Below are positions 896 through 30,573 of a stretch of DNA of 30,573 bases, one piece after another. How positions within the stretch are numbered: position 1 is the stretch's first letter; each line of letters starts with the position of its first letter. The notes below the pieces were generated by a model. It did no database searches and was not told where the DNA came from. It saw only the letters and a list, made by a program, of their open reading frames with translations. This stretch comes from an uncultured Candidatus Saccharibacteria bacterium (GTDB taxonomy: Bacteria > Patescibacteriota > UBA1384 > JAMDBS01 > CAZXAY01), in the NCBI GenBank assembly GCA_964638435.1, contig CAZXAY010000010.1, forward strand, positions 1-30,573. The letters are read 5' to 3'. The position numbers and the translations under genes are program-made.

Positions 896-930
896 ATAAT
901 TCATAATTCATAATTCATAATTCATAATTC
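896..930. repeat. tandem heptamer (ATAATTC)x5 plus one degenerate unit
   Basis: Five perfect ATAATTC copies were counted directly at 896-930, followed by the degenerate unit TTTATTC. Confidence 0.9.
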
Positions 931-1100
931 TTTATTCATTAGACTTATTACGAAATAACATTTTTACTACAAACTAATAATTTTGGTTAAAAAATAATTC
1001 ATAGTTCGTCAGCGTAACTCTGTTACAACTTCCTCGCTCTTCATTATTTTCACTCAAAATTCTTAGCTTTCGCTACAAAAATTATTACGTAACAAGTCTA

Positions 1101-2758: not shown

Positions 2759-3355
2759 ATGATGAATAAATTAGTTTGTATTGTTGGTATGACTGGATCG
2801 GGGAAATCAGTGGTGGCTGATGAATTTGTTAAAGCCAGATACGGATATCTACGATTTGGGCAATTAACACTTGATGAGGTTAAAAAAAGATATGGTAATA
2901 ACCCTCCAGAAGGTTTTGAAAAAGTAGAAAAAGAGATTCGTGAAGGGTTTCGTGCTAAATATGGCATGGGAGCTTTTGCCACTTTGAATATTCCCAAATT
3001 TGATGAGTTGTTAGAAAAAGGCAACGCCTTAGGCGATGGTTTATATAGTTGGACAGAATATAAAATTTTAAAAGAAAAGTATCGAGACAAATTTTTTGTT
3101 ATTGCAGTTTATGCTCCGCCAGCTTTGCGATATCAAAGGTTAGTTAATAGATCAAAAGATGTAAAAGATGATCCCAAACTAAGGTACCGGTCTTTTACTC
3201 TGGAAGAAGCAAAATCACGAGATTTTGCCGAGATCGAAAATATCGAAAAAGGTGGTCCCATCGCCATGGCTGATTATACTATAGTAAATATTGGTGATAT
3301 GGACGAAGTTATTAAAAAGACTAAAGAAATAATAGAAGAAATAGGTAACAAGTGA
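2759..3355 (+). CDS. P-loop nucleotide/nucleoside kinase (NMP-kinase fold, CoaE/dNMP-kinase-like)
   Basis: Walker A VGMTGSGKS. The lid-like region YAPPALRYQRLVNR resembles the dephospho-CoA-kinase/NMP-kinase superfamily. It lies inside a dTMP-pathway gene string. AAGGAG RBS. Confidence 0.55.
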   Translation: MMNKLVCIVGMTGSGKSVVADEFVKARYGYLRFGQLTLDEVKKRYGNNPPEGFEKVEKEIREGFRAKYGMGAFATLNIPKFDELLEKGNALGDGLYSWTEYKILKEKYRDKFFVIAVYAPPALRYQRLVNRSKDVKDDPKLRYRSFTLEEAKSRDFAEIENIEKGGPIAMADYTIVNIGDMDEVIKKTKEIIEEIGNK

Positions 3356-3381
3356 CAAAGTAACCAGTAACAAGGAGTACT

Positions 3382-4363: not shown

Positions 4364-4407
4364 TCTAGTAACAAGTAACCAGTGACCAGTGACGAGGAAT
4401 GTAAGAA

Positions 4408-5037
4408 ATGATCAATCAAATAATTAAAGAAGTAGAAAAATACCTAAAAGGGCGGAGTGATTCGCACGATATTGAGCATTGTCATCGTGTGGCTAAAATA
4501 GCCCGTGAGGTTGCCAAAGACTATAACAAAGCCGATACGGAGATTATTATTGCAGGGTGTTATTTACATGACGTAGGTTATACCAAAGCATCTTATGGTC
4601 ACCCGCATTGCGTGGCTGGAGTTAAAATTGCTCAAGATATTCTAGAAAAAATTGGTTACTCACAAGACAAAATTGATAAAATATGCGAAATAGTATTACA
4701 TCACGAAGATAGCAAATTTGGCATAAAATACCAGCCTAATCTAGAAACTAGAATAGTCCAAGATGCTGATGCAATTGATGGCTTTGGAGCTGTTGGGCTA
4801 TCAAGATTTTTCCAATTCGCTGGCTCAACTAATATGCCTCTTTGGATTCCCAGTTACAAAAAAGAACCAAAGATAATTTATGAAAATATAAGTATAATCC
4901 ATAACATCGAGGCAGTGATTAAATATGCTGGTGAAATTTGTACTACAAAGCTTGGTAAAAAATTGTTTAAATATCGCCTAAAGGTAATGAAAAGTTTTGT
5001 TAAAGAATTTAAAAAAGAATGGACCACCCAGATATAA
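4408..5037 (+). CDS. HD-domain phosphohydrolase (possible 5'-deoxynucleotidase)
   Basis: H..H...HD motif: HCHRVAKIA ... YLHDVGY ... LHHED. 209 aa. Sits in the dNMP/dTMP metabolic context. Confidence 0.7.
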   Translation: MINQIIKEVEKYLKGRSDSHDIEHCHRVAKIAREVAKDYNKADTEIIIAGCYLHDVGYTKASYGHPHCVAGVKIAQDILEKIGYSQDKIDKICEIVLHHEDSKFGIKYQPNLETRIVQDADAIDGFGAVGLSRFFQFAGSTNMPLWIPSYKKEPKIIYENISIIHNIEAVIKYAGEICTTKLGKKLFKYRLKVMKSFVKEFKKEWTTQI

Positions 5038-5048
5038 AATTTCATCAG

Positions 5049-5800
5049 TAACCTGTTATCACCCTCAAGGTGATAACAGGTTATCTACGATATTTTGTTT
5101 ATATGAATTATAGAAAACAACCATTAGTTAATGAAGGAATCTATCATATTCTGAATAAGAGTATCGCAGAGTATAAAATTTTTAGTAATAATTTTCACTT
5201 TAGAAGAATGATGCAATTATTAGTTTACTATCAATATGCCAATGTACCAGTAAGATATTCTTATTTTATTAAGCTTGATCCACAAGAGCAAGATGAAGTA
5301 TTTAGATATTTACAGATAAAAAATGATAAACTTGTTGATATAATTTCCTATTGCCTTATGCCTACCCATTATCATCTTATTTTAAAACAGTTATTGAAAG
5401 GTGGTATTTCAAAATATATCAATTTAATCCAAAACAGCTATGCAAAATATTTTAACATAAAACACGATCGAAATGGCCCATTATGGCAAGGGTATTTTAA
5501 AAATGTATTAGTAGATACAGATGAACAACTTTTGCATTTAACTCGCTACCAACACATAAATCCAGTATCTGCTGGTTTGGTAGAGGATCCTATTGAGTGG
5601 GAATATTCATCTTATAAAGAATATATAGGGAAAAAACAAACTAAAATTTGTAGTTATAATAATTTAATTGATGTCAGACCAAAAATATATAAAAGATTTG
5701 TTGAAAATAGAATTAGTTATCAGCGAGAATTAACAAGAATTAAAAAAATTATATTAGAATAAAAATATCAAACTTAACCTGAAATCACCTTGAGGGTGAT
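5049..5800 (+). mobile_element. REPtron-like unit: RAYT / IS200-like Y1 transposase gene flanked by inverted palindromes
   Basis: Left end: perfect 15-bp stem palindrome TAACCTGTTATCACC-CTCAA-GGTGATAACAGGTTA at 5049-5083. Right end: ATCACC-TTGAG-GGTGAT at 5784-5800. Its loop is the reverse complement of the left loop, and it is preceded by the same TAACCTG..ATCACC arm. Confidence 0.7.
5103..5762 (+). CDS. REP-associated tyrosine transposase (Transposase_17 / IS200-like HUH-Y1)
   Basis: HUH motif in YCLMPTHYHLIL. GPLWQGYF. C-terminal RYQHINPVSAGLVEDPIEWEYSSY matches the RAYT signature NPV.AGLV..P..W.WSS. The ORF-track GTG start at 5070 lies inside the left palindrome, so the ATG at 5103 is preferred. 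Confidence 0.75.
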   Translation: MNYRKQPLVNEGIYHILNKSIAEYKIFSNNFHFRRMMQLLVYYQYANVPVRYSYFIKLDPQEQDEVFRYLQIKNDKLVDIISYCLMPTHYHLILKQLLKGGISKYINLIQNSYAKYFNIKHDRNGPLWQGYFKNVLVDTDEQLLHLTRYQHINPVSAGLVEDPIEWEYSSYKEYIGKKQTKICSYNNLIDVRPKIYKRFVENRISYQRELTRIKKIILE

Positions 5801-5834
5801 ATAAGGTAGGCAATGAAATTTATGTGAGTAAAAT

Positions 5835-16126: not shown

Positions 16127-16208
16127 AAACTTCCATTTTATTGTTATTATTGTAGGATTTATTAACACTATATCAAAATATATTAATAAAATCAACCCAT
16201 ATTTAATA

Positions 16209-19261: not shown

Positions 19262-19550
19262 TCTTGTTCCTTCTTATTAGATTATCGACCGTAGTTCTCA
19301 ATTTAATTGAATAATAATTAATCAAACTAAAAATAACTTGTAAACTTGTTTGACAGATAGAAGCCCATCCATCAATTTACAAAAGGTAATACTTTGATTA
19401 TTATTAGGATTTATCAAAAGAATTCTAAACAGATAGTATTTACCATCCGTACGTAAAACAAATCCTAGTTATTCACCCAATAAATATGAGATTAACTTTA
19501 TTGTATAAGGTTTAAAATCATTGTCAATATATATTACGTACGCAAAATTA

Positions 19551-20251: not shown

Positions 20252-20422
20252 CAAGATATTAACCTAAAAAATTCTTCTTGTCAAGAAGATTGCTAAATCT
20301 TAAATCATAAATCTAAAATCTAAAATTGTTTAGAGTACTTTTTTGAGATATTGGCCAGTAAAAGAAGTTTTTACTTTAACAACTTCTTCTGGAGTTCCTT
20401 GAGCAACAATTTGTCCGCCCAT
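20252..20422. repeat. 171-bp direct repeat (left copy) = target duplication of the IS
   Basis: Identical by eye to 22026-22196 (171 bp). Includes a copy of the last ~94 nt of uvrA plus downstream sequence. Confidence 0.85.
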
Positions 20423-22025
20423 CCCGACTTGTAACATTCTGTTTTTTAAAAGAAATTTGATTGATTATCTAACCATATAACTTGTTTCAAAACTCATTTT
20501 TTGTCATACTAATGGCATGTTTCATATTAGAATAACAAAAACTGCTTCATTATCAAGCGCTGTTCAAGTAGTTCGCTATGAACAACGTAGATTAATTGTT
20601 GTAAAACATATTGGTAGTGCCCATACCTCAGAAGATATTAAGGCGCTAAAATTAATTGCGCGCGAGTGGATAGAAAAGAAGTCTAAACAGCACTCTCTTT
20701 TCCTTGCACAAAAAACAACAGCTTCTCGATTTATCTCTTTGGAGAAAAGCCAGTTTTTGGGAACTCGTTATCCTTTTATTCATCAATTTCTGACCAAAAT
20801 ATCTAGTCGATTTAACTTTGAAAAATTAAATTGTAATTTACTTACCGATTTAGTGATTATCCGTATTATTGAGCCTGCGTCTCTTCTGCGTTCCACAGAG
20901 CTTTTAGACGAGTTGTTTGGTATTAAATATTGGCGTGAGGATTTCTATCGTTATTTGCCACATTTTATCGGCTGGAAAGAAAAAATAGAAGAATGTGCGC
21001 TAACTTTAGCAAAAAGAGAACTTAAGTTCAATTTTACACTCGTCTTTTATGATGTAACAACTTTGTATTTTGAATCATTTAAAGCTGATAATCTAAGAAA
21101 ACCTGGTTTTTCTAAAGATGGTAAATCTGCCCAACCTCAAATCTTAATCGGTTTGCTTGTAAGCTCTGAGGGGTTTCCTGTCGCCTATGAAATATATGAG
21201 GGCAATAAATTTGAAGGTCATACTTTAATTCCTTCTATCTCAAATTTTCAACAAAAATATGAGATCAAAACACTGACAGTTGTCGCTGATGCAGCCATGA
21301 TCAGTTCTGACAATATTAAAGCCCTAAAAGGAAATCAGCTTTCATACATCGTGGGTGCTAGAATTACTAATCTTCCCAAGTTAGTAATAGATGAGATTAA
21401 TAAGAAACTTAAACCTGAAGATGGGACAACCATCAGAATAATATCCAAACATGGAATTTTAGTCTGCGGTTTTTCAACTAAGAGGTATAACAAGGACAAA
21501 CGCGAGATGGAAAAGCAAATCGCTAAAGCAACAATATTACTTAAGTATCCGACAAAAGCCAAGCGTACAAAATTTGTTAAAAGTAAAACTAAAACTAGCT
21601 TTGAGTTAAACAAAACGTTAATTGAAAAAACTAAAAAACTCCTTGGGATTAAAGGATATTACACAAATCTTAATGAAGTTGATGATCAAACTATCATCGC
21701 CAGGTATCATGATCTTTGGCACGTTGAACAGGCTTTTAGAATAGCAAAAAATGATCTCGAGACTCGTCCCGTTTATCATTTTAAAGAAGATCCTATTAAA
21801 GTTCATATTATGATCTGCTTTATGGCTTTGGCCGTTTGCAAATATCTAGAGATCAAAACTGGTAAATCAATTAAGAACATTATCAAATTATTTAAAAGTG
21901 TGGTAGATGCCCGAATTCTGAATACTGTAACAAGAGAAGAAATCACAATGCAATCTGTTATATCAAAAGAAGTGAAAGATATTTTAGAAATATTAAGATT
22001 GCCATACTAATTGTTACAAGTCGGG
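20423..22025 (+). mobile_element. IS4-superfamily / IS1634-family insertion sequence
   Basis: Terminal inverted repeats CCCGACTTGTAACA (20423-20436) and TGTTACAAGTCGGG (22012-22025), 14/14. Single DDE transposase ORF. Flanked by a 171-bp direct duplication. Long variable target duplications are a hallmark of IS1634-like elements. Confidence 0.8.
20517..22010 (+). CDS. DDE transposase, IS4/IS1634 family
   Basis: 497 aa. Candidate catalytic D in FYDVTTLYFES and VADAAM. C-terminal YHDLWHVEQAFRIAK fits the IS4 Y-x2-[R]-x3-E-x6-K signature (here L replaces R). Confidence 0.75.
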   Translation: MFHIRITKTASLSSAVQVVRYEQRRLIVVKHIGSAHTSEDIKALKLIAREWIEKKSKQHSLFLAQKTTASRFISLEKSQFLGTRYPFIHQFLTKISSRFNFEKLNCNLLTDLVIIRIIEPASLLRSTELLDELFGIKYWREDFYRYLPHFIGWKEKIEECALTLAKRELKFNFTLVFYDVTTLYFESFKADNLRKPGFSKDGKSAQPQILIGLLVSSEGFPVAYEIYEGNKFEGHTLIPSISNFQQKYEIKTLTVVADAAMISSDNIKALKGNQLSYIVGARITNLPKLVIDEINKKLKPEDGTTIRIISKHGILVCGFSTKRYNKDKREMEKQIAKATILLKYPTKAKRTKFVKSKTKTSFELNKTLIEKTKKLLGIKGYYTNLNEVDDQTIIARYHDLWHVEQAFRIAKNDLETRPVYHFKEDPIKVHIMICFMALAVCKYLEIKTGKSIKNIIKLFKSVVDARILNTVTREEITMQSVISKEVKDILEILRLPY

Positions 22026-22196
22026 AAGATATTAACCTAAAAAATTCTTCTTGTCAAGAAGATTGCTAAATCTTAAATCATAAATCTAAAATCTAAAATT
22101 GTTTAGAGTACTTTTTTGAGATATTGGCCAGTAAAAGAAGTTTTTACTTTAACAACTTCTTCTGGAGTTCCTTGAGCAACAATTTGTCCGCCCATG
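22026..22196. repeat. 171-bp direct repeat (right copy), contiguous with intact uvrA 3' end
   Basis: Matches 20252-20422. Confidence 0.85.
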
Positions 22197-24601
22197 TCAC
22201 CACCGTCTGGTCCCATATCAATTATATGGTCAGCACATTTGATTACATCCATATTATGTTCGATGACTAAGACTGTATTACCTTTATCAACTAATGCCTG
22301 AAGGACTTTTAGTAAACGGTCTATATCTTCAAAATGTAAGCCAGTAGTTGGTTCATCAAGAATATACAAAGTTTGACCTGTATCTTGTCTAGCAAGCTCA
22401 GTAGCTAATTTAACACGTTGGGCCTCACCACCAGAGAGAGTTGTAGCTGATTGACCTAACTTCATATAACCAAGCCCAACAGCAGACAATACCGAAAGTT
22501 TAGTATTTAATATTGGTACGTCTTTAAAAAACTGCCAAACATCATCTATGGTCATTTCTAGAACATCAGCAATATTTTTGCCTTTATGGTAAATGTCTAA
22601 TACTTCCTTATTATATCTACGACCGTGACATGTATCACAAGTAATATAAACGTCTGGTAAAAAGTGCATTTCGAATTTAATAACCCCATCTCCTTTACAA
22701 TTTTCGCATCGACCACCTTTAACGTTAAAGGAAAAATGACCAGAATTATAGTTTCTTTTAACTGCTTCTGTGTTAGATGTAAAAATTTCTCTTATTGTTG
22801 TAAAAACACCAGTATAAGTTGCGGGGTTACTGCGAGGTGTTCTACCAATAGCCGATTGGTCAATGTTAATTACTTTATCAATAAATTGGGTACCAATTAA
22901 TGCTTTGTGAGCTCCGGGCTCAGATTTGGCATGGTGGAATTTTTTAGACAATGCTTTAGCGAGAATGTCAGAAACCAAGGTTGATTTACCACTTCCAGAA
23001 ACACCTGTAATACAAGTAAATGTGTTCAAGGGTATCTTTACGTCAATATTTTTTAAATTATGTTCTGTAGCACCTTTAATAATTAAATACTTATTATTTG
23101 TTGTGCGGCGTTTTTTTGGAATCATTATCCCTTTTTTACCAGTTAAATATTGACCAGTTAATGAATTGGGATCATTTTTAATCTCTTGGGGTGTCCCTTG
23201 AGCCATCACTTTACCGCCTAGCTCGCCGGCTCCGGGGCCAATATCAATTATATAATCTGCAGCATCCATAGTTTGTTTATCATGTTCGACTACAATTACT
23301 GTATTATCTAGGTCGCGTAACCTAAATAGATTTTTAATTAATTTTTCTTGATCCCTTTCGTGTAACCCAATGGATGGTTCATCAAGAATATATATAACAC
23401 CCGTTAGATATGATCCAAGTTGAGTTGCCAGACGAATTCTTTGTGCTTCACCACCAGCAAGACTTTCAGCATTACGATCAAGAGTTAGGTAGGATAAACC
23501 AACTTCGATGATAAATTTTAACCTTTTAATAATATCATTAACGATTTGCTCAACTATCTTTTTTTCTGTAACAGACAATTTTGAATTTAATTTATTAAAA
23601 AAATCTAATATTTGGGTAATATTCATTGCAGAAATTTCTACAATATTTTTTTTATCGATTGTAACTTTTAAGATCTCTTGTTTAAGTCTTTTACCACCAC
23701 AAACTGGGCAGATTCGTTTAACCATATATTTTTCGATTTCGTTTTGAATATAATCAGAATCTGTTTCTTTGTACCTTTTTTCTAGGTTTGGGATTACTCC
23801 TTCAAAATATTTACTATCTGTTGGTACACCAAAACCATCTAAAATAACTTTTCTAATTTGTTTTGTAAGATGACTCACAGGTGTTTCTAAACTAAAATGA
23901 AAATCTTGTGCAAGTTTTTGCAAAGCTTTATTATACCAACTACTATGTGATGTTGTCCGGCTCCAAGGTCTAATAGCACCTTCGGATATGGTAAGTCTTA
24001 AATTTGGTAAAACTAACTTAGGATCGACTTCTAATCTTTCTCCAAGCCCTTGACAACCAGGGCAGGCACCGCGAGGACTATTAAAAGAAAAGGAACTAAT
24101 ATTAAGTTCAGAAAGAGAATATTGACAATCTAGACATTGATAAATAGTTTGGTTGATTTTATTATTGGCAACTTTTTTGTCTTCTTCATCAGGCTTGATT
24201 ATTTCTATTTCGCGTTTAACTAATTTTTTGCCACAATTAATGCAGTGCGAGATACCAATCCTTGTAAATAATAACCTAAGATAGTCATATATCTCACTCA
24301 TCGTGCCAACAGTGGAACGGGGACTAATACCAGCAGTTTTTTGATCTATAGATAGAGCTGGGGATAAACCTTCTATATAATCAACGTCAGGTTTTTCTAA
24401 TGATCCTAAAAATTGTCTGGCATAATTTGATAATGATTCAACATATCTGCGTTGCCCTTCGGCATATATTGTGTCAAATGCTAGTGACGATTTACCACTA
24501 CCAGAAATACCGGTTAATACAGTAAGTTGGTTTCTAGGAATTTCAACAGTAATATTTTTTAGATTATGTACTCGAGCGCCAACAACTTTGATTTTATCCA
24601 T
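22103..24601 (-). CDS. uvrA: UvrA-family ABC ATPase, short form lacking the UvrB-binding domain
   Basis: Two ABC ATPase modules ([20 protein letters not shown]). Signature LSGGE and Zn modules ([16 protein letters not shown]). Only about 35 aa separate CINCGKK from CLDCQYS, where E. coli UvrA carries the ~130-aa UvrB-binding domain. 832 aa. Confidence 0.8.
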
Positions 24602-24691
24602 ACGGTCCTTAAAACAAATTCAAATTTCAAAACTCAAATTTTAAATCAAATCCAAATGTTTAAATGTTTTAAAATTAGAATTTAATTAATT

Positions 24692-24724
24692 GACCTGCCC
24701 GACATGCCAGTCATGGCAGGCGGG
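24692..24724 (+). repeat. REP-like nested-hairpin element (part of a ~80-bp repeated block at 24653-24733)
   Basis: GACCTGCCCGACATGCCAGTCATGGCAGGCGGG. Outer stem CCTGCC/GGCAGG and inner stem TGCCA-GTCA-TGGCA. The block is repeated at 30501-30573, with an inverted copy at 10931-10964. Confidence 0.8.
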
Positions 24725-24882
24725 TTAAAAATTTATAATTTCAAATTTGAATTTTATTCATTTGTTGAATTACTTTTCCAAGCATATCATATTTGTCAAG
24801 ATTATGCAAGTAGAGCAATACCCTTGCCAAAAGATAAAAAAATGTTATAGTAAAAACAAGTAAAATAAATATTTATTAATCA

Positions 24883-24910
24883 GCGAGATCCGTTCGAAAC
24901 GCGAGATCCG
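24883..24910 (+). promoter_or_regulatory. direct repeat GCGAGATCCG x2 separated by TTCGAAAC, just upstream of the bactofilin RBS
   Basis: GCGAGATCCG at 24883-24892 and 24901-24910. The spacer contains the palindrome TTCGAA. GC-rich in an AT-rich leader. Confidence 0.35.
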
Positions 24911-24929
24911 CAGGTGAGAAAGGAGTAAT

Positions 24930-25382
24930 ATGTTTGATAAAAGTCAAGAAGCTACAAGTGGTCCGGGAACAATTGTAGGAGCAAATGTAAAATTAACAGG
25001 TATCTTAAAAGATGCTAACGATATTACCATCTTTGGTCACGTTGAGGGAGAGGTGATCTCAGATAAAAATGTAATGCTTGAAGAAAATGCATCAATCAAA
25101 GGGCCAATTACTGCTCAAGTTATTACAGTTTCCGGTAGTGTTAATGGTTCCATTAATGCTGAAACTAAACTTGAAATTACCCCAACAGGTAAAGTTACAG
25201 GTAGTATTACTACTCGAGATTTAATAATTAAATCTGGTGCTCAATTTGATGGCAAAAGTGCAATGATTAAATCTAAATCAGATGGTAGCAAAACAAAGGT
25301 TGTTGAAGAAGTAGAAGATGACTTAAAAGGTGATGAAGCTCAAAAAGATAAAAAAGAAGAACCAAAATACGAAGTGGAGTAA
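24930..25382 (+). CDS. bactofilin (polymer-forming cytoskeletal protein)
   Basis: Beta-helical repeat pattern typical of DUF583 / bactofilin: ILKDANDITIFGHVEGEVISDKNVMLEENASIKGPITAQVITVSGSVNGSI...IKSGAQFDGK. Charged C-terminal tail. AAAGGAG RBS. Confidence 0.7.
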   Translation: MFDKSQEATSGPGTIVGANVKLTGILKDANDITIFGHVEGEVISDKNVMLEENASIKGPITAQVITVSGSVNGSINAETKLEITPTGKVTGSITTRDLIIKSGAQFDGKSAMIKSKSDGSKTKVVEEVEDDLKGDEAQKDKKEEPKYEVE

Positions 25383-25397
25383 TCAGTAGGTAATTAT

Positions 25398-25478
25398 CGC
25401 CACTAATTTTAATACACTAATTTCACTAATAATTCGTGATATTTGTGAAAATATATTAGTGGAGATTAATACAATAAA
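25398..25478 (+). promoter_or_regulatory. repeated 5' leader element, copy A (CACTAAT repeats ... ATTAGTGGAGATTAATACAATA)
   Basis: About 80% identical over about 75 nt to 26813-26894. Three CACTAAT direct repeats and a distal inverted ATTAGTG, which can form a long-range stem. Confidence 0.5.
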
Positions 25479-25482
25479 TATC

Positions 25483-26280
25483 ATGTATTATTACATTTTT
25501 GAACAACCCAAAGGATTATCTGAAAAAAATCTTCAGAAAAAAATAAAAGATTCACTAGGGTTATTAGGTTTAGCTGGCGAGACCGCAAATGTCTCTCCAG
25601 CCCGGACCACTGAGGAGCTAGTCGACATTGCATTAGCTAAAGAGTATAACACTATTGTTGCCGTAGGATCTGATCAGTTAATTAACAAAGTCGCATCTTT
25701 GATAATTGGTAAAGATGTTGTTTTGGGTATTATCCCAATCAAAACTAGTGATATTATTAATAAAATTATTGGATTAGATAATATAGAAGATGCTTATAGG
25801 GCGCTAAAAAAAAGATTTCTAAAAATTGTAGATTTAGCATATTTGTATCCAGGAAGTTATTTTATCACTAAAGCCGGAATAAAATCAGAAAAACCTGTAG
25901 AATTAGAACTAGAAATTGATCAATTCAAGTCAACAGTTATGGTAACAGATCTATCGGTTATTAGCCCGGCGATTAATACTGTTAAATCAAATCATAGCGA
26001 ACTTGAGCAATCAGATAATCGTTTAAATATTTATCTAACAAATAAGAATAAACAACCATATGATATTGTTAAATTTTTTAATAAAGCCATTGGTAAAGAT
26101 GTAATAGATAAAGTTAGTAGCGTTTTTAGAGCCAGAAAATTTATAATTAACTCGACCTCGCCTATACCCATTGTTATTGATGGGAAAATTGTTGACAAAA
26201 CACCTGTAATTTTTACAACAAAACCTAAGGTCTTGAAAATAATTACAAATCGTGCTAAAATAGAAGTTAAGAAAAATTAA
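25483..26280 (+). CDS. DAGK_cat-family lipid kinase-like protein (degenerate GGDG motif)
   Basis: IVAVGSDQLINKV aligns with the GGDGT nucleotide-binding motif of the YegS/BmrU/DgkA-like kinases. The start is uncertain (ATG 25483 versus GTG 25459), and neither has a good SD. Confidence 0.45.
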   Translation: MYYYIFEQPKGLSEKNLQKKIKDSLGLLGLAGETANVSPARTTEELVDIALAKEYNTIVAVGSDQLINKVASLIIGKDVVLGIIPIKTSDIINKIIGLDNIEDAYRALKKRFLKIVDLAYLYPGSYFITKAGIKSEKPVELELEIDQFKSTVMVTDLSVISPAINTVKSNHSELEQSDNRLNIYLTNKNKQPYDIVKFFNKAIGKDVIDKVSSVFRARKFIINSTSPIPIVIDGKIVDKTPVIFTTKPKVLKIITNRAKIEVKKN

Positions 26281-26310
26281 ATTATTATTAATAGTAGCTG
26301 GAGGTATCAA

Positions 26311-26811
26311 ATAACATTACGTCAAAGACTAAATAATCAAATTACCGCACCAGAAGTTTTTTTGATAAGTGAAGATGGTAGGGCATATGGTAAAGTTAGT
26401 TTGGATCAAGCTTTATTTTTGGCTTATGATAGAGGTATAGATTTGCTTGAGATAAATCCAAGTATCCAGCCACCTGTATGTAAATTACAGGATTATGGTA
26501 AGTTTTTATACGAAAGATCAAAACAAGTTCAAAAACAAAGAGCAAAACAAAAAAATTCCGAACTTAAAGAAATTAAATTAAGTATTAATATTGGAGATCA
26601 TGATTTAAAAGTTAAAGAAAAAAGAGCCTTAGAATTTATTAGTTCTGGTGATAAAGTCAAGATATTCATGGTTCTAAGAGGTCGCGAGATGATGTTTAAA
26701 GATAAAGTAAAAGATGTAATGAACAGGTTTAAAGATGACATTGGTTTAGACTTTGCTGAACCAGTTAATCATCAAGGTAATCGCTTCTCGGTTATGTTAA
26801 AGAAGAAATAA
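26311..26811 (+). CDS. infC: translation initiation factor IF-3, non-AUG (ATA) start
   Basis: GGAGG at 26300-26304, then ATA at 26311. The frame is open from 26281. N-terminal NNQITAPEVFLISEDGRAYGKVSLDQALFLA matches the IF3 N-domain consensus (INEEIRA.EVRLID.DG...). The ORF-track TTG at 26362 would remove the conserved N-terminal block. Confidence 0.7.
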   Translation: MTLRQRLNNQITAPEVFLISEDGRAYGKVSLDQALFLAYDRGIDLLEINPSIQPPVCKLQDYGKFLYERSKQVQKQRAKQKNSELKEIKLSINIGDHDLKVKEKRALEFISSGDKVKIFMVLRGREMMFKDKVKDVMNRFKDDIGLDFAEPVNHQGNRFSVMLKKK

Positions 26812-26812
26812 T

Positions 26813-26894
26813 ACCACTAATACACAGATTTCACTAATATCACTAATCATCCGTGTAATTCGTGTAATAGAATTAGTGGAGATTAATACAATAT
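26813..26894 (+). promoter_or_regulatory. repeated 5' leader element, copy B, between infC and rpmI
   Basis: CCACTAAT...TTCACTAATATCACTAAT...CGTG..CGTG...ATTAGTGGAGATTAATACAATA. Followed by AGGAA RBS and the rpmI ATG. Confidence 0.5.
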
Positions 26895-26903
26895 AGGAAT
26901 CAT

Positions 26904-27101
26904 ATGAAATTAAAAACAAGCAAGTCAGCAATTAAAAGAATAAAAAATATCACTCCACGTGGTAAAGTTATGGTTAGCAATATGTCGGCACAACATAGAA
27001 CAACTGGTAAGTCACCACGGACTTTGCGTAATTCAGCACATAGTTATGTTGTTTCAAGCGCAAATATGAAGACAATGAAAAAATTAATCCCAGGATTATA
27101 A
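26904..27101 (+). CDS. rpmI: 50S ribosomal protein L35
   Basis: MKLKTSKSAIKRIKNITPRGKVM is the L35 family N-terminus. 65 aa. Confidence 0.85.
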   Translation: MKLKTSKSAIKRIKNITPRGKVMVSNMSAQHRTTGKSPRTLRNSAHSYVVSSANMKTMKKLIPGL

Positions 27102-27187
27102 CAAGTCTACACCTTCGCCTCTACCTAACGGGAAAAGGCAAAACTTATTAGGATTAAATCTTGATAAGAGTAAAAGAAAGGAAATCT

Positions 27188-27532
27188 ATGAGAGTAAAAC
27201 GCGGCGTAATGGTAAAAAAACGCCATAAGAACATTCTAAAACTTACTAAAGGGTTTAAACACGGTCGTAAAAAATTAATAAAGCACGCCAAAGTAGCCCT
27301 ACTTAAAGCCGGAACATTTGCTTATCGCGATCGTCGTAATAAAAAACGAGATTTCCGCAGATTATGGATCGTTAGAATTAATGCAGCTGTGCGCGAATAT
27401 GGTTTAACTTACTCTAAATTTATTAAACTATTATCGAACAAAAAAATCGAGCTTGATCGTAAGATTCTAGCAGATCTAGCAATGAATAATCCAGAAGAAT
27501 TTAAAAAAATTGTGGAAAAAGTCCAAGTTTAA
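27188..27532 (+). CDS. rplT: 50S ribosomal protein L20
   Basis: [23 protein letters not shown]...[23 protein letters not shown] matches L20. AAGGAA RBS 5 nt before the ATG at 27188. The ORF-track TTG at 27161 is an upstream extension. Confidence 0.85.
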
Positions 27533-27535
27533 CTA

Positions 27536-27560
27536 TTAGACTTATTACGTAACAAGTCTA
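27536..27560 (+). repeat. palindromic motif TTAGACTTATTACGTAACAAGTCTA (intact copy)
   Basis: Arms AGACTT/AAGTCT and core TTACGTAA. Partial copies at 939-952 (left half), 1081-1100 (right half), 27096-27109 and 28394-28407 (minus strand). Confidence 0.7.
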
Positions 27561-27568
27561 TTCTAATC

Positions 27569-27605
27569 AAAAAATCACTTCTCAATAAGTTCGAAGTGAT
27601 TTTTT
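27569..27605. terminator. bidirectional rho-independent terminator between rplT (+) and lspA (-)
   Basis: Perfect 13-bp inverted repeat AAAAAATCACTTC (27569-27581) / GAAGTGATTTTTT (27593-27605) with an 11-nt loop. A/T runs on both sides. Confidence 0.8.
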
Positions 27606-27642
27606 GATCCCTAAATTGCTAAATTTATTGTGAGCTATTCAA

Positions 27643-28044
27643 TCACTTTTTTCTAAAACTCGTCCATAAATATAAAACTATTCCTACAAACAGATATAAA
27701 TCAGCCAAGTTAAAATGATTTAAGTTAAAAAAACTAAAAAAATCAATAACAAATCCATGCCAAACCCTATCGATGATATTAGATATGGCCCCTGCGATAA
27801 TTAGCATAATTGACCAACGATATATAGGTTTTTTAAGATCAGAATTAAAAACTATCCAGATCATAGAAATTATTCCAATAACCAATAACCAATAACCAAT
27901 AACTTGATTATTTACCCAACCAAATATTGTGCCTTTATTACTTGTAATATATGTAGAAAACCTATTAAACATTAACCATTTTAAAAATTGATCCATCAGG
28001 ACCAAAACTATTGTAAATATAAATAACTGATGTTTATTAATCAT
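27643..28044 (-). CDS. lspA: lipoprotein signal peptidase (signal peptidase II)
   Basis: 133 aa, 4 TM. Motifs NKGTIFGW, IIDRVWHGFVIDF, FNLAD are characteristic of LspA. Confidence 0.8.
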   Translation of the reverse strand: MINKHQLFIFTIVLVLMDQFLKWLMFNRFSTYITSNKGTIFGWVNNQVIGYWLLVIGIISMIWIVFNSDLKKPIYRWSIMLIIAGAISNIIDRVWHGFVIDFFSFFNLNHFNLADLYLFVGIVLYLWTSFRKK

Positions 28045-28385: not shown

Positions 28386-28422
28386 AAATACCTTATTAGA
28401 CTTGTTATATAATAATTTTCGA

Positions 28423-30450: not shown

Positions 30451-30532
30451 AATCTCCTCATAAAAATTCAAAATTCAAATTTGTAACCAAATTCAAAATT
30501 CAAATGTTTTAAAAATTGGAATTTAATTAATT

Positions 30533-30565
30533 GACCTGCCCGACATGCCAGTCATGGCAGGCGGG
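30533..30565 (+). repeat. REP-like nested-hairpin element, third copy (block 30501-30573)
   Basis: Identical to 24692-24724. The flanking AT-rich block CAAATGTTTTAAAA.TTGGAATTTAATTAATT is shared with 24653-24691. Confidence 0.8.
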
Positions 30566-30573
30566 TTAAAAAT

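Follow-up and report, generated by a model that had tools for sequence, protein, structure and literature searches.

The 30,573-nucleotide (nt) stretch analysed here (contig CAZXAY010000010.1 of assembly GCA_964638435.1, from an uncultured Candidatus Saccharibacteria bacterium; hereafter the window) contains two similar copies of a palindromic intergenic element on the plus strand, one in the spacer from a bactofilin gene to a lipid-kinase gene (copy A, 25396-25478) and one in the spacer from infC to rpmI (copy B, 26813-26894). Copies A and B are read here, with confidence that is about evenly divided, as lineage-specific palindromic spacer repeats of ACD58-type Candidate Phyla Radiation (CPR) bacteria, similar in kind to repetitive extragenic palindromic (REP) sequences and miniature inverted-repeat transposable elements (MITEs), which would be tolerated between coupled cistrons because the hairpin holds the upstream stop codon near the downstream start codon. 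No description of the element family was found in the searchable literature on intergenic repeats of Berkelbacteria and CPR bacteria, but it belongs to a well-known kind of element. Each element is a palindrome of about 65-130 nt, and all copies are intergenic. The arms are made up of two to four short words (approximately C-R-C-N-R-A-W), inverted in the 3' arm, and are followed by a short 3' flank with a Shine-Dalgarno (SD)-like GGAG or AGGA and, in many copies, a -10-like TACAWT. The word differs between subfamilies (CACTAAT, CACNGAT, CACAGAA and CGCAGAA) and the arms remain complementary, with the outer words CCACTAAT/ATTAGTGG and CTATCACAGAA/TTCTGTGATAG forming perfect inverted repeats, that is, terminal inverted repeats. 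Related genomes are coded L0xx below, and the suffix of a copy gives its site (A, bactofilin to kinase; M, kinase to infC; B, infC to rpmI; C, rplY to a miaB-like gene), with win denoting the window.

Copies A and B belong to the CACTAAT subfamily and scored 68.7 and 65.6 bits, respectively, with the nhmmer family profile. A MAFFT alignment of 25385-25485 with 26800-26906 gave 84% mean column identity over 107 columns, and a repeat search of the window returned a 62-nt direct repeat (25415-25476 and 26832-26893) with 82% identity, in line with the value of about 80% that a first-pass annotation, made from the sequence alone, had assigned to 25398-25478 and 26813-26894. The identical 22-mer that it had reported, ATTAGTGGAGATTAATACAATA, occurs at exactly two sites in the window, 25455 and 26872, even when up to three mismatches are allowed (0.01 sites expected). 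In copy A the 22-mer (25455-25476, plus strand) comprises the outermost 3' word and the 3' flank and holds the SD-like GGAG, and its -10-like TACAAT (25470-25475, plus strand) lies 7 nt ahead of the ATG at 25483; in copy B (26872-26893, plus strand) the TACAAT (26887-26892) lies 11 nt ahead of the ATG at 26904. The word CACTAAT is present 13 times on the two strands of the window, against 5.1 expected, and eight of these sites fall within the two copies, each of which has three direct and one inverted instance, just as the annotation had listed. The 5' words of copy A are CCACTAAT (25400-25407), ACACTAAT (25414-25421) and TCACTAAT (25423-25430), and its inverted 3' words are ATTCGTGA (25432-25439), ATTTGTGA (25441-25448) and ATTAGTGG (25455-25462), all on the plus strand. 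Copy B, on the same strand, has the 5' words CCACTAAT (from 26814), ACACAGAT (26822), TCACTAAT (26831) and again TCACTAAT (26840), and the 3' words ATCCGTGT (26849), ATTCGTGT (26858) and ATTAGTGG (26872). The CGTG repeats of the first-pass annotation are present but are degenerate forms of the inverted word: ATTCGTG and ATTTGTG belong to copy A, and ATCCGTG and ATTCGTG to copy B. The relative's copy L011_A keeps ATTAGTG at all three 3'-word positions, and the CGTG repeats of the window align with its inner ATTAGTG words; they are therefore decayed 3' words.

The two halves of copy B have different affinities. Its 5' half (CACCACTAATACACAGATTTCACTAAT) is orthologous to L009_B and L011_B, which end ...AATTAGTAGGAAACAAATCGGAGATTTGATATG with an ordinary SD, and its 3' half is an A-type end that is also present in L011_A. 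On the simplest reading of these alignments, copies A and B share the 22-mer as the outcome of recombination or gene conversion, in the lineage of the window, by which an A-type copy replaced the original 3' half of copy B.

A third copy (copy C, 15041-15121, minus strand) occupies the spacer between rplY/ctc, encoding ribosomal protein L25 (15138-15848, minus strand, upstream), and a MiaB/RimO-like gene with UPF0004 and Radical_SAM domains (13839-15035, minus strand, downstream). It belongs to the CGCAGAA/TTCTGCG subfamily, shared with L010_B, L010_M and L014_B, and ends in GATAGGAG, 7 nt ahead of the ATG at 15035. Its score of 63.6 bits with the second family profile (fam2) is not independent evidence, copy C being among the four sequences from which that profile was built. 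The same layout of words and inverted words is seen in the related genomes, whose proteins are labelled Candidatus Berkelbacteria or Patescibacteria by their sources. Three CACTAAT/A words are followed by three ATTAGTG words and then GGAGATTAATACATTA in L011_A; three CACGGAT words by ATCTGTG, ATCAGCG and ATCAGTG in L009_A; three copies of TCACAGAA by three TTCTGTG words in L010_B; and CGCAGAA by TTCTGCG and TTCAGCG in L014_B. The profile of the CACTAAT subfamily also found an element at the bactofilin-kinase junction of L018/L019, where the kinase is only 43% identical (L018_A, which reads TAA, CCACAGAT..TCACTGAT.ACACGGAT..ATCAGTGA.ATCTGTGA..ATCAGTGG, T, ATG). Searches with short exact sequences were uninformative: the 18-mer ATTAGTGGAGATTAATAC gave seven single matches in unrelated taxa in the genome contig collection, which is chance level, and the 15-mer CACTAATTTCACTAA matched at least 120 stretches of viral contigs, all consistent with chance, with no element found by the family profiles among those 120 loci.

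At least four junctions are occupied across eight related genomes. Site A is occupied in the window, L011, L009 and L018/L019; site M in L009, L010 and L014, and is empty in the window; site B in the window, L009, L011, L010 and L014; and site C in the window, L044 and L045. Elements are missing at the corresponding sites of L012/L013, L015, L016, L046 and L020-L023, and most relatives with this operon (L012, L015 and L018-L023) have no element between infC and rpmI, the spacer being 13-46 nt long in L012, L015, L018 and L020-L023. Subfamilies also exchange at one site among close relatives. At site A the window and L011 have a CACTAAT-type element and L009, with a kinase 90% identical, a CACGGAT-type one, and at site C the CGCAGAA-type copy of the window contrasts with CACTAAT-type copies very like copy A in L044 (L25 91% identical) and L045 (75%), with no element at all in L046 (69%). 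Elements are thus gained, lost and swapped between sites. The gene order bactofilin-kinase-infC-rpmI(-rplT) is kept in relatives with kinases of 90, 78, 66, 65, 64, 57, 43, 41 and 33% identity, and the more distant of these, like L012/L013, L015 and L016, have spacers of just 8-50 nt that contain no element. A scan of metagenome contigs guided by the kinase alignment, which returned one close relative plus distant ones, gave this spacer state as well as L018. The ancestral operon was therefore compact, and the elements are lineage-specific expansions of spacers that were originally short, both in this operon and in rplY-miaB-like. In L009 (1700-1716) the reading frame of the kinase enters the element and ends at a TGA within its first word (CCACTGAT), so that in this genome the kinase gene takes its stop codon from the element.

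The long-range stem-loop proposed in the first-pass annotation was recovered in copy A, where the minimum free energy (MFE) structure pairs CCACUAAU (25400-25407) with AUUAGUGG (25455-25462) at -21.3 kcal/mol (z = -4.0), while in copy B the same pairing appeared in the centroid structure only (z = -1.65, not significant). Seven of 12 copies fold far better on the plus strand than dinucleotide-shuffled sequences, with z from -3.1 to -6.1 (win_A -4.0, L011_A -4.3, L009_A -4.9, L010_B -6.1, L044_C -5.4, L018_A -4.2 and L014_B -3.1). Pairing between the arms was examined in a pseudo-alignment of words (three 5' and three 3' words from each of 13 copies), which was made to fit the structure and is for that reason biased towards pairing; in it 81% of the cells are paired, against 32-39% in slid controls. 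Changes on both sides were seen in 13 of 24 pairs, the covariation score was 0.325 against 0.178 for shuffled words (reached in 0 of 500 shuffles), and the best-kept part is the outermost helix. The covariation between subfamilies that the annotation had asked for is accordingly present, although an RNA stem and a DNA inverted repeat with homogenised words would be equally expected to produce it, and it does not tell the two apart. The hairpin fills 66-91% of each spacer and leaves 10-35 nt unpaired, about the length of the ancestral spacer. The stem begins 0-2 nt past the upstream stop codon in L010_B, L014_B, L018_A and the B copies, and in L018 the base of the hairpin touches both the TAA stop and the start, the stem ending 1 nt before the ATG.

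From these observations the following course of events may be envisaged. Elements would spread or exchange among intergenic spacers and, once transcribed within the mRNA of an operon, would fold into a long imperfect hairpin. Folding would bring the stop codon of the first gene to within only about 10-35 unpaired nt of the initiation region of the next, so that an insertion of 70-100 nt could be tolerated between translationally coupled cistrons, including ahead of the kinase gene, which has no SD. The outer helix may be kept while the inner words decay because folding must hold stop and start close together.

Several observations weigh against this reading. Copies could be counted only in the 30.5-kb window (n = 3). 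The occupied sites, compared with empty or differently occupied ones (window and L009 at site M, window and L016 at site A, window and L044 at site C), have no target-site duplication, the spacer having been replaced without flanking duplications. No transposase could be linked to the element, and the REP-associated tyrosine transposase (RAYT)-like gene is flanked by a different hairpin. The copies win_B, win_C (z = -1.67), L009_B and L011_B fold no better than shuffled sequences, and neither does L009_M, and the fourth position of each word is mostly unpaired, more as in a bipartite protein-recognition motif than in a helix. The plus and minus strands are similar in folding stability, and the mRNA strand is not enriched in G-U pairs (20, against 42 on the minus strand); selection at the RNA level is therefore not demonstrated. 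Between the window and L011 the word arms, at about 84-89% identity, are better conserved than the coding DNA beside them (69-77%). Site A has been occupied since ancient times, being filled even at 43% kinase identity. This age, together with the conservation of the arms, could mean that the element is selected for a function and is not simply tolerated.

The operon that contains copies A and B begins with the bactofilin gene (24930-25382, plus strand), upstream of which a sigma-70-like promoter match is found (TTGCCA-16-TATAGT with TG, 24824-24851). The bactofilin 5' leader carries a direct repeat at 24873-24912, GCGAGATCCG(N9)GCGAGATCCG, between this predicted promoter and the SD. The lipid-kinase gene (DAGK_cat, YegS-like; 25483-26280, plus strand) starts at ATG 25483 (MYYYI...), because every homologue begins in this way (13 of 13); this settles the question, left undecided in the first-pass annotation, of ATG 25483 or GTG 25459, the latter being ruled out by the N-termini of the homologues. 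The gene infC, encoding initiation factor IF3 (26311-26811, plus strand), has an ATA start at 26311 behind a GGAGG at 26300-26304 and an upstream spacer of 30 nt without an element. In the relatives infC starts at the equivalent position with codons of the ATC or ATT type. The ATA start behind a strong GGAGG fits the classical autoregulation of IF3 through a non-canonical start codon. The genes rpmI (L35; 26904-27101) and rplT (L20; 27189-27532) follow on the plus strand, rpmI with its own SD-like AGGA at 26895-26898. The GGAG within the 22-mer stands 18 nt (copy A) and 22 nt (copy B) from the start codons and is therefore not the SD of the kinase gene or of rpmI. Between rpmI and rplT there is a small motif richer in GC, CCTTCGCC..(loop)..GGGAAAAGGC, which is kept in three genomes (window 27113-27142, L009 2610-2645, L011 2105-2140) and gave a weak seven-pair fold with no covariation in RNAalifold (three sequences). 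This motif could be a remnant of the GC-rich repeat, or a real structure ahead of rplT, in which case it would be a better candidate for any L20 feedback site.

The alternatives differ in whether the words would act as DNA or as RNA. In a portable promoter with an operator array, which we regard as unlikely, the CRC-N-RAW words (three direct, three inverted) would be double-stranded DNA sites for an oligomerising regulator and TACAWT would be the -10 box of an internal promoter for the downstream gene; the mRNA of the kinase would then be leaderless, since its ATG stands 7 nt after TACAAT. Elsewhere in the window TACAAT does serve as the -10 box in promoters of canonical appearance (TTGACA-16-TACAAT at 19505, minus strand; TTGATA-16-TACAAT at 16154, minus strand; TGTTACAAT at 11483, plus strand), and TACAWT is placed 7-8 nt past the last word in most copies. 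In the window, L011 and L009 it stands exactly 7 nt ahead of the SD-less ATG of the kinase; in the M copies it stands 7-8 nt ahead of the GGAGG of infC. Binding by a protein would also suit words that occur in both orientations with a degenerate, mostly unpaired fourth position, that are more conserved across genomes than coding DNA, and that have no RNA-specific G-U bias on either strand. However, none of the copies has a -35-like hexamer 16-19 nt ahead of TACAWT (by inspection, the nearest hexamer of TTG type is at 21-22 nt), and a scan with the sigma-70 consensus found no promoter-like site inside copy A or B. TACAWT is missing from L018_A, L044_C, win_C, L009_B and L011_B, the array of L018 ends 1 nt before the ATG, and the TACATT of L010_B and L014_B resembles part of a second, tandem copy of the initiation region ATAGGA..ATG. 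A single regulator is hard to square with different word subfamilies at one site in close relatives and within one genome, a gap of 1-24 nt between the innermost words suits a loop and not a fixed operator, and Pfam scans of 30 open reading frames (ORFs) of the window found no DNA-binding regulator. The portable promoter or untranslated-region module put forward in the first-pass annotation is largely borne out as a dispersed, exchangeable intergenic element, but a promoter in it is putative, there being a -10-like TACAAT with no -35 at a usable distance.

As RNA, the hairpin might be a selected cis-acting structure (an RNase III-type processing site, an mRNA stabiliser, or a device that makes downstream translation depend on translation of the upstream gene) recruited repeatedly at translation-related operons (infC, rpmI-rplT and rplY-miaB/rimO-like), which is also improbable in our estimation. 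The strong fold z-scores of seven copies, the covariation of the arms and the filling of site A from 100% to 43% kinase identity with retention of the outer helix CCAC..GTGG all agree with such a role. So do the hairpin bases, which adjoin the upstream stop (0-2 nt) in L010_B, L014_B, L018_A and the B copies, with the start codon adjoined as well in L018, and the outer helices of L009_A and L009_M, whose G-U pairs fall on the mRNA strand. Yet the minus strand folds equally well or better and has more G-U pairs overall (42 against 20), win_B, win_C, L009_B and L011_B have decayed to the stability of shuffled sequences at no visible cost, many close relatives have the same operons but no element, and the hairpin does not stand at a constant distance from the SD or start codon. 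All three window copies flank translation genes, but three are too few for a claim of enrichment. A particular form of this idea, to which we give little credence, has the hairpins as selected intercistronic bridges, setting the upstream stop beside an SD-less start so that terminating ribosomes re-initiate across the base of the stem; they would have been kept at the bactofilin-kinase junction from 100% to 43% identity and reused at other translation-related operons. The first-pass annotation had instead raised the possibility that L20- or IF3-linked control was extended to a second gene, an autoregulatory leader having been duplicated so as to place the kinase/infC transcript under rpmI-rplT control. 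L20 represses rpmI-rplT through mRNA structures near the infC-rpmI position in Escherichia coli and upstream of infC in Bacillus, and the positions of copy B in the infC-rpmI spacer and of copy A at the head of the kinase-infC unit are what made this attractive. It is now highly improbable. Neither the L20 leader family RF00558 nor any other Rfam family matched, in the whole window at the gathering score or in 24600-27700 at E<=10, and the infC-rpmI spacers of L012, L015, L018 and L020-L023, as noted above, are without the element. Copies stand before unrelated genes at four junctions (kinase, infC, rpmI and miaB-like), a distribution that the annotation itself had named as contrary to its proposal, and the family is not confined to the L20 regulon, since it precedes the miaB-like gene in the window, L044 and L045. 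The words differ among copies and genomes, so that there is no common sequence to mimic rRNA, and L009_B and L011_B fold no better than shuffled sequences.

The immediate consequence of reading the elements as tolerated palindromic spacer repeats is the removal of a tempting but wrong annotation, that of an L20 leader extended to a lipid-kinase gene. Beyond this, the elements show that the reduced genomes of CPR bacteria, usually viewed as tightly packed, can hold a family of small palindromic repeats of fast turnover within their core operons for ribosomal proteins and translation. Should the hairpins prove necessary for coupling stop to start, or carry promoters, they would be a simple example of repeats accommodated or co-opted in streamlined genomes; at present the finding is a modest descriptive one.

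Other repeats are plentiful in the window and its relatives, the genome also having GC-rich hairpin repeats, terminator-like hairpin repeats and tandem heptamer arrays. The RAYT-like IS200/Y1 transposase gene (5103-5762, with the HUH motif THYHL; Pfam Y1_Tnp; NCBIfam REP_Tyr_transpos at 61 bits, cut-off 80) is bracketed by two similar hairpins, of which TAACCTGTTATCACC/GGTGATAACAGGTTA lies at 5049-5083 and its variant near 5775-5803, and a repeat search found inverted arms of 67 nt around it (5037-5103 and 5755-5821). A link between the element and this gene was considered and rejected, as these hairpins differ from the element apart from a common TATCAC/GTGATA hexamer, which would be a lead at most. 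A DDE transposase of the IS1634 family (20517-22010, 326 bits) is flanked by 170-nt repeats that are 100% identical (20253-20422 and 22026-22195) and direct, not inverted, which is unusual for an insertion sequence. A second duplicated upstream module, of 111 nt and 86% identity, lies at 24622-24732 and 30463-30573, before uvrA and a phosphoribosyltransferase gene, both on the minus strand, and holds a GC-rich hairpin (CCTGCCCGACATGCCAGTCATGGCAGGCGGG) with word arms of TCAAAT/ATTTGA on its flanks. The GC-rich hairpin recurs in inverted orientation, as a third copy, at 10923-10960, and in L010 (817-1003), L014 (1577-1724) and L018 (3923-3946) related hairpins are inserted behind the first 5' word of the element. 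Hairpins of the form TAGACTT-ATTACGTAAC-AAGTCTA occur at gene ends (937-958, 1074-1095, 27534-27555, immediately past the rplT stop, and 28394-28415) and are probably the intrinsic terminators of the organism; a consensus terminator scan of 24500-27700 found none.

Tandem arrays of 7-10 nt words are found directly before start codons in the window (897-931, 3345-3375 and 4375-4402), L010 (1-33 and 1830-1865) and L046 (1810-1840), with the words ATAATTC (five times), AGTAACA/AGTAACC/AGTGACC/AGTGACG, ATTAGAA (three times), CTGATTAA (three times) and ATGTTTAKAT (three times). The word AGTAACC recurs in the hairpin flanking the RAYT-like gene, and tandem duplication of short words seems to characterise the spacers of this lineage in general. 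Palindromes with different words are present in more distant relatives, namely L025 (1530-1620, four ATAAAGT words followed by three of AACTTTAT) and L012 (10392-10501, GTGATTA ... TAATCAC), so the layout of words followed by inverted words may be widespread in the intergenic DNA of CPR bacteria. The window also encodes a 721-amino-acid protein resembling the Major Vault Protein (MVP) (11614-13779; Pfam Vault, Vault_2, Vault_3 and MVP_shoulder), with Major Vault Protein repeat, shoulder and SPFH/Band-7 domains, and its gene is preceded by the TGTTACAAT extended -10 box and a terminator-like leader hairpin (11483-11560).

Among known systems, TIGR arrays (TIGR-Tas, RNA-guided) have been reported in CPR bacteria and phages (PMC12045711). 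The present elements are like them in being short, repeat-rich non-coding arrays in CPR genomes without strong sequence conservation. They were nevertheless rejected as TIGR arrays, having no 36-nt units and no edge or loop repeats, a word spacing of 8-17 nt and a palindromic form, with no Nop-domain Tas gene in the Pfam scans of the 30 window ORFs. Arrays of short direct and inverted words beside promoters are also known as the heptad operators of ribbon-helix-helix proteins, such as omega of pSM19035 (WATCACW). The element words share with these a (T/A)TCAC core and one degenerate position, but the omega heptads are contiguous, whereas the words here are 8-17 nt apart around a variable centre, with several words per genome and no candidate repressor identified. 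The L20 leader (RF00558) and the E. coli rpmI-rplT operator have in common with copy B the infC-rpmI-rplT neighbourhood and a structured RNA ahead of rpmI; they differ in that the elements have no covariance-model match, are not conserved in orthologous operons, occur at unrelated junctions and have no constant sequence mimicking 23S rRNA. BOX elements of Streptococcus pneumoniae and the enterobacterial repetitive intergenic consensus (ERIC), or intergenic repeat unit (IRU), sequences are modular intergenic repeats, with tandem boxB modules, that can fold into stable stem-loops in the transcript and can modulate the expression of adjacent genes. The modules of BOX are 45-59 nt long, in contrast to words of 7-8 nt here, and there is no sequence similarity and the host lineage is another.

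The elements also have likenesses to REP sequences and Correia elements. Like the REP/REPIN-RAYT systems of Enterobacteria and Pseudomonas, the elements are short extragenic hairpin palindromes, often placed between cistrons in operons, and the family persists across related genomes with variable occupancy of orthologous sites; the window also has a RAYT-like Y1 transposase gene with flanking hairpins. REP systems have tens to hundreds of copies dispersed in a genome; here the tally is three copies in 30.5 kb and four occupied junctions over eight genomes. Each arm is built up from 7-8 nt words in an array, unlike a single REP unit, and is AT-rich and not GC-rich, and the hairpin that flanks the RAYT-like gene, GGTGATAACAGGTTA, differs from the element and recurs only at the two flanks of that gene, whose RAYT match of 61 bits falls under the NCBIfam cut-off of 80. 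Correia elements of Neisseria (CREE, Correia repeat enclosed elements, or NEMIS, Neisseria miniature insertion sequences) are MITE-like, about 100-150 bp long with terminal inverted repeats, and lie between genes; they are co-transcribed with their neighbours, their hairpins are cut by RNase III, and their ends can give promoter elements to the neighbouring gene. Although no TA or other target-site duplication was seen here, there is no sequence relationship, and arms built as word arrays are not a Correia feature, the elements of the window and its relatives resemble them in joining a hairpin to a 3' flank with -10-like and SD-like sequences.

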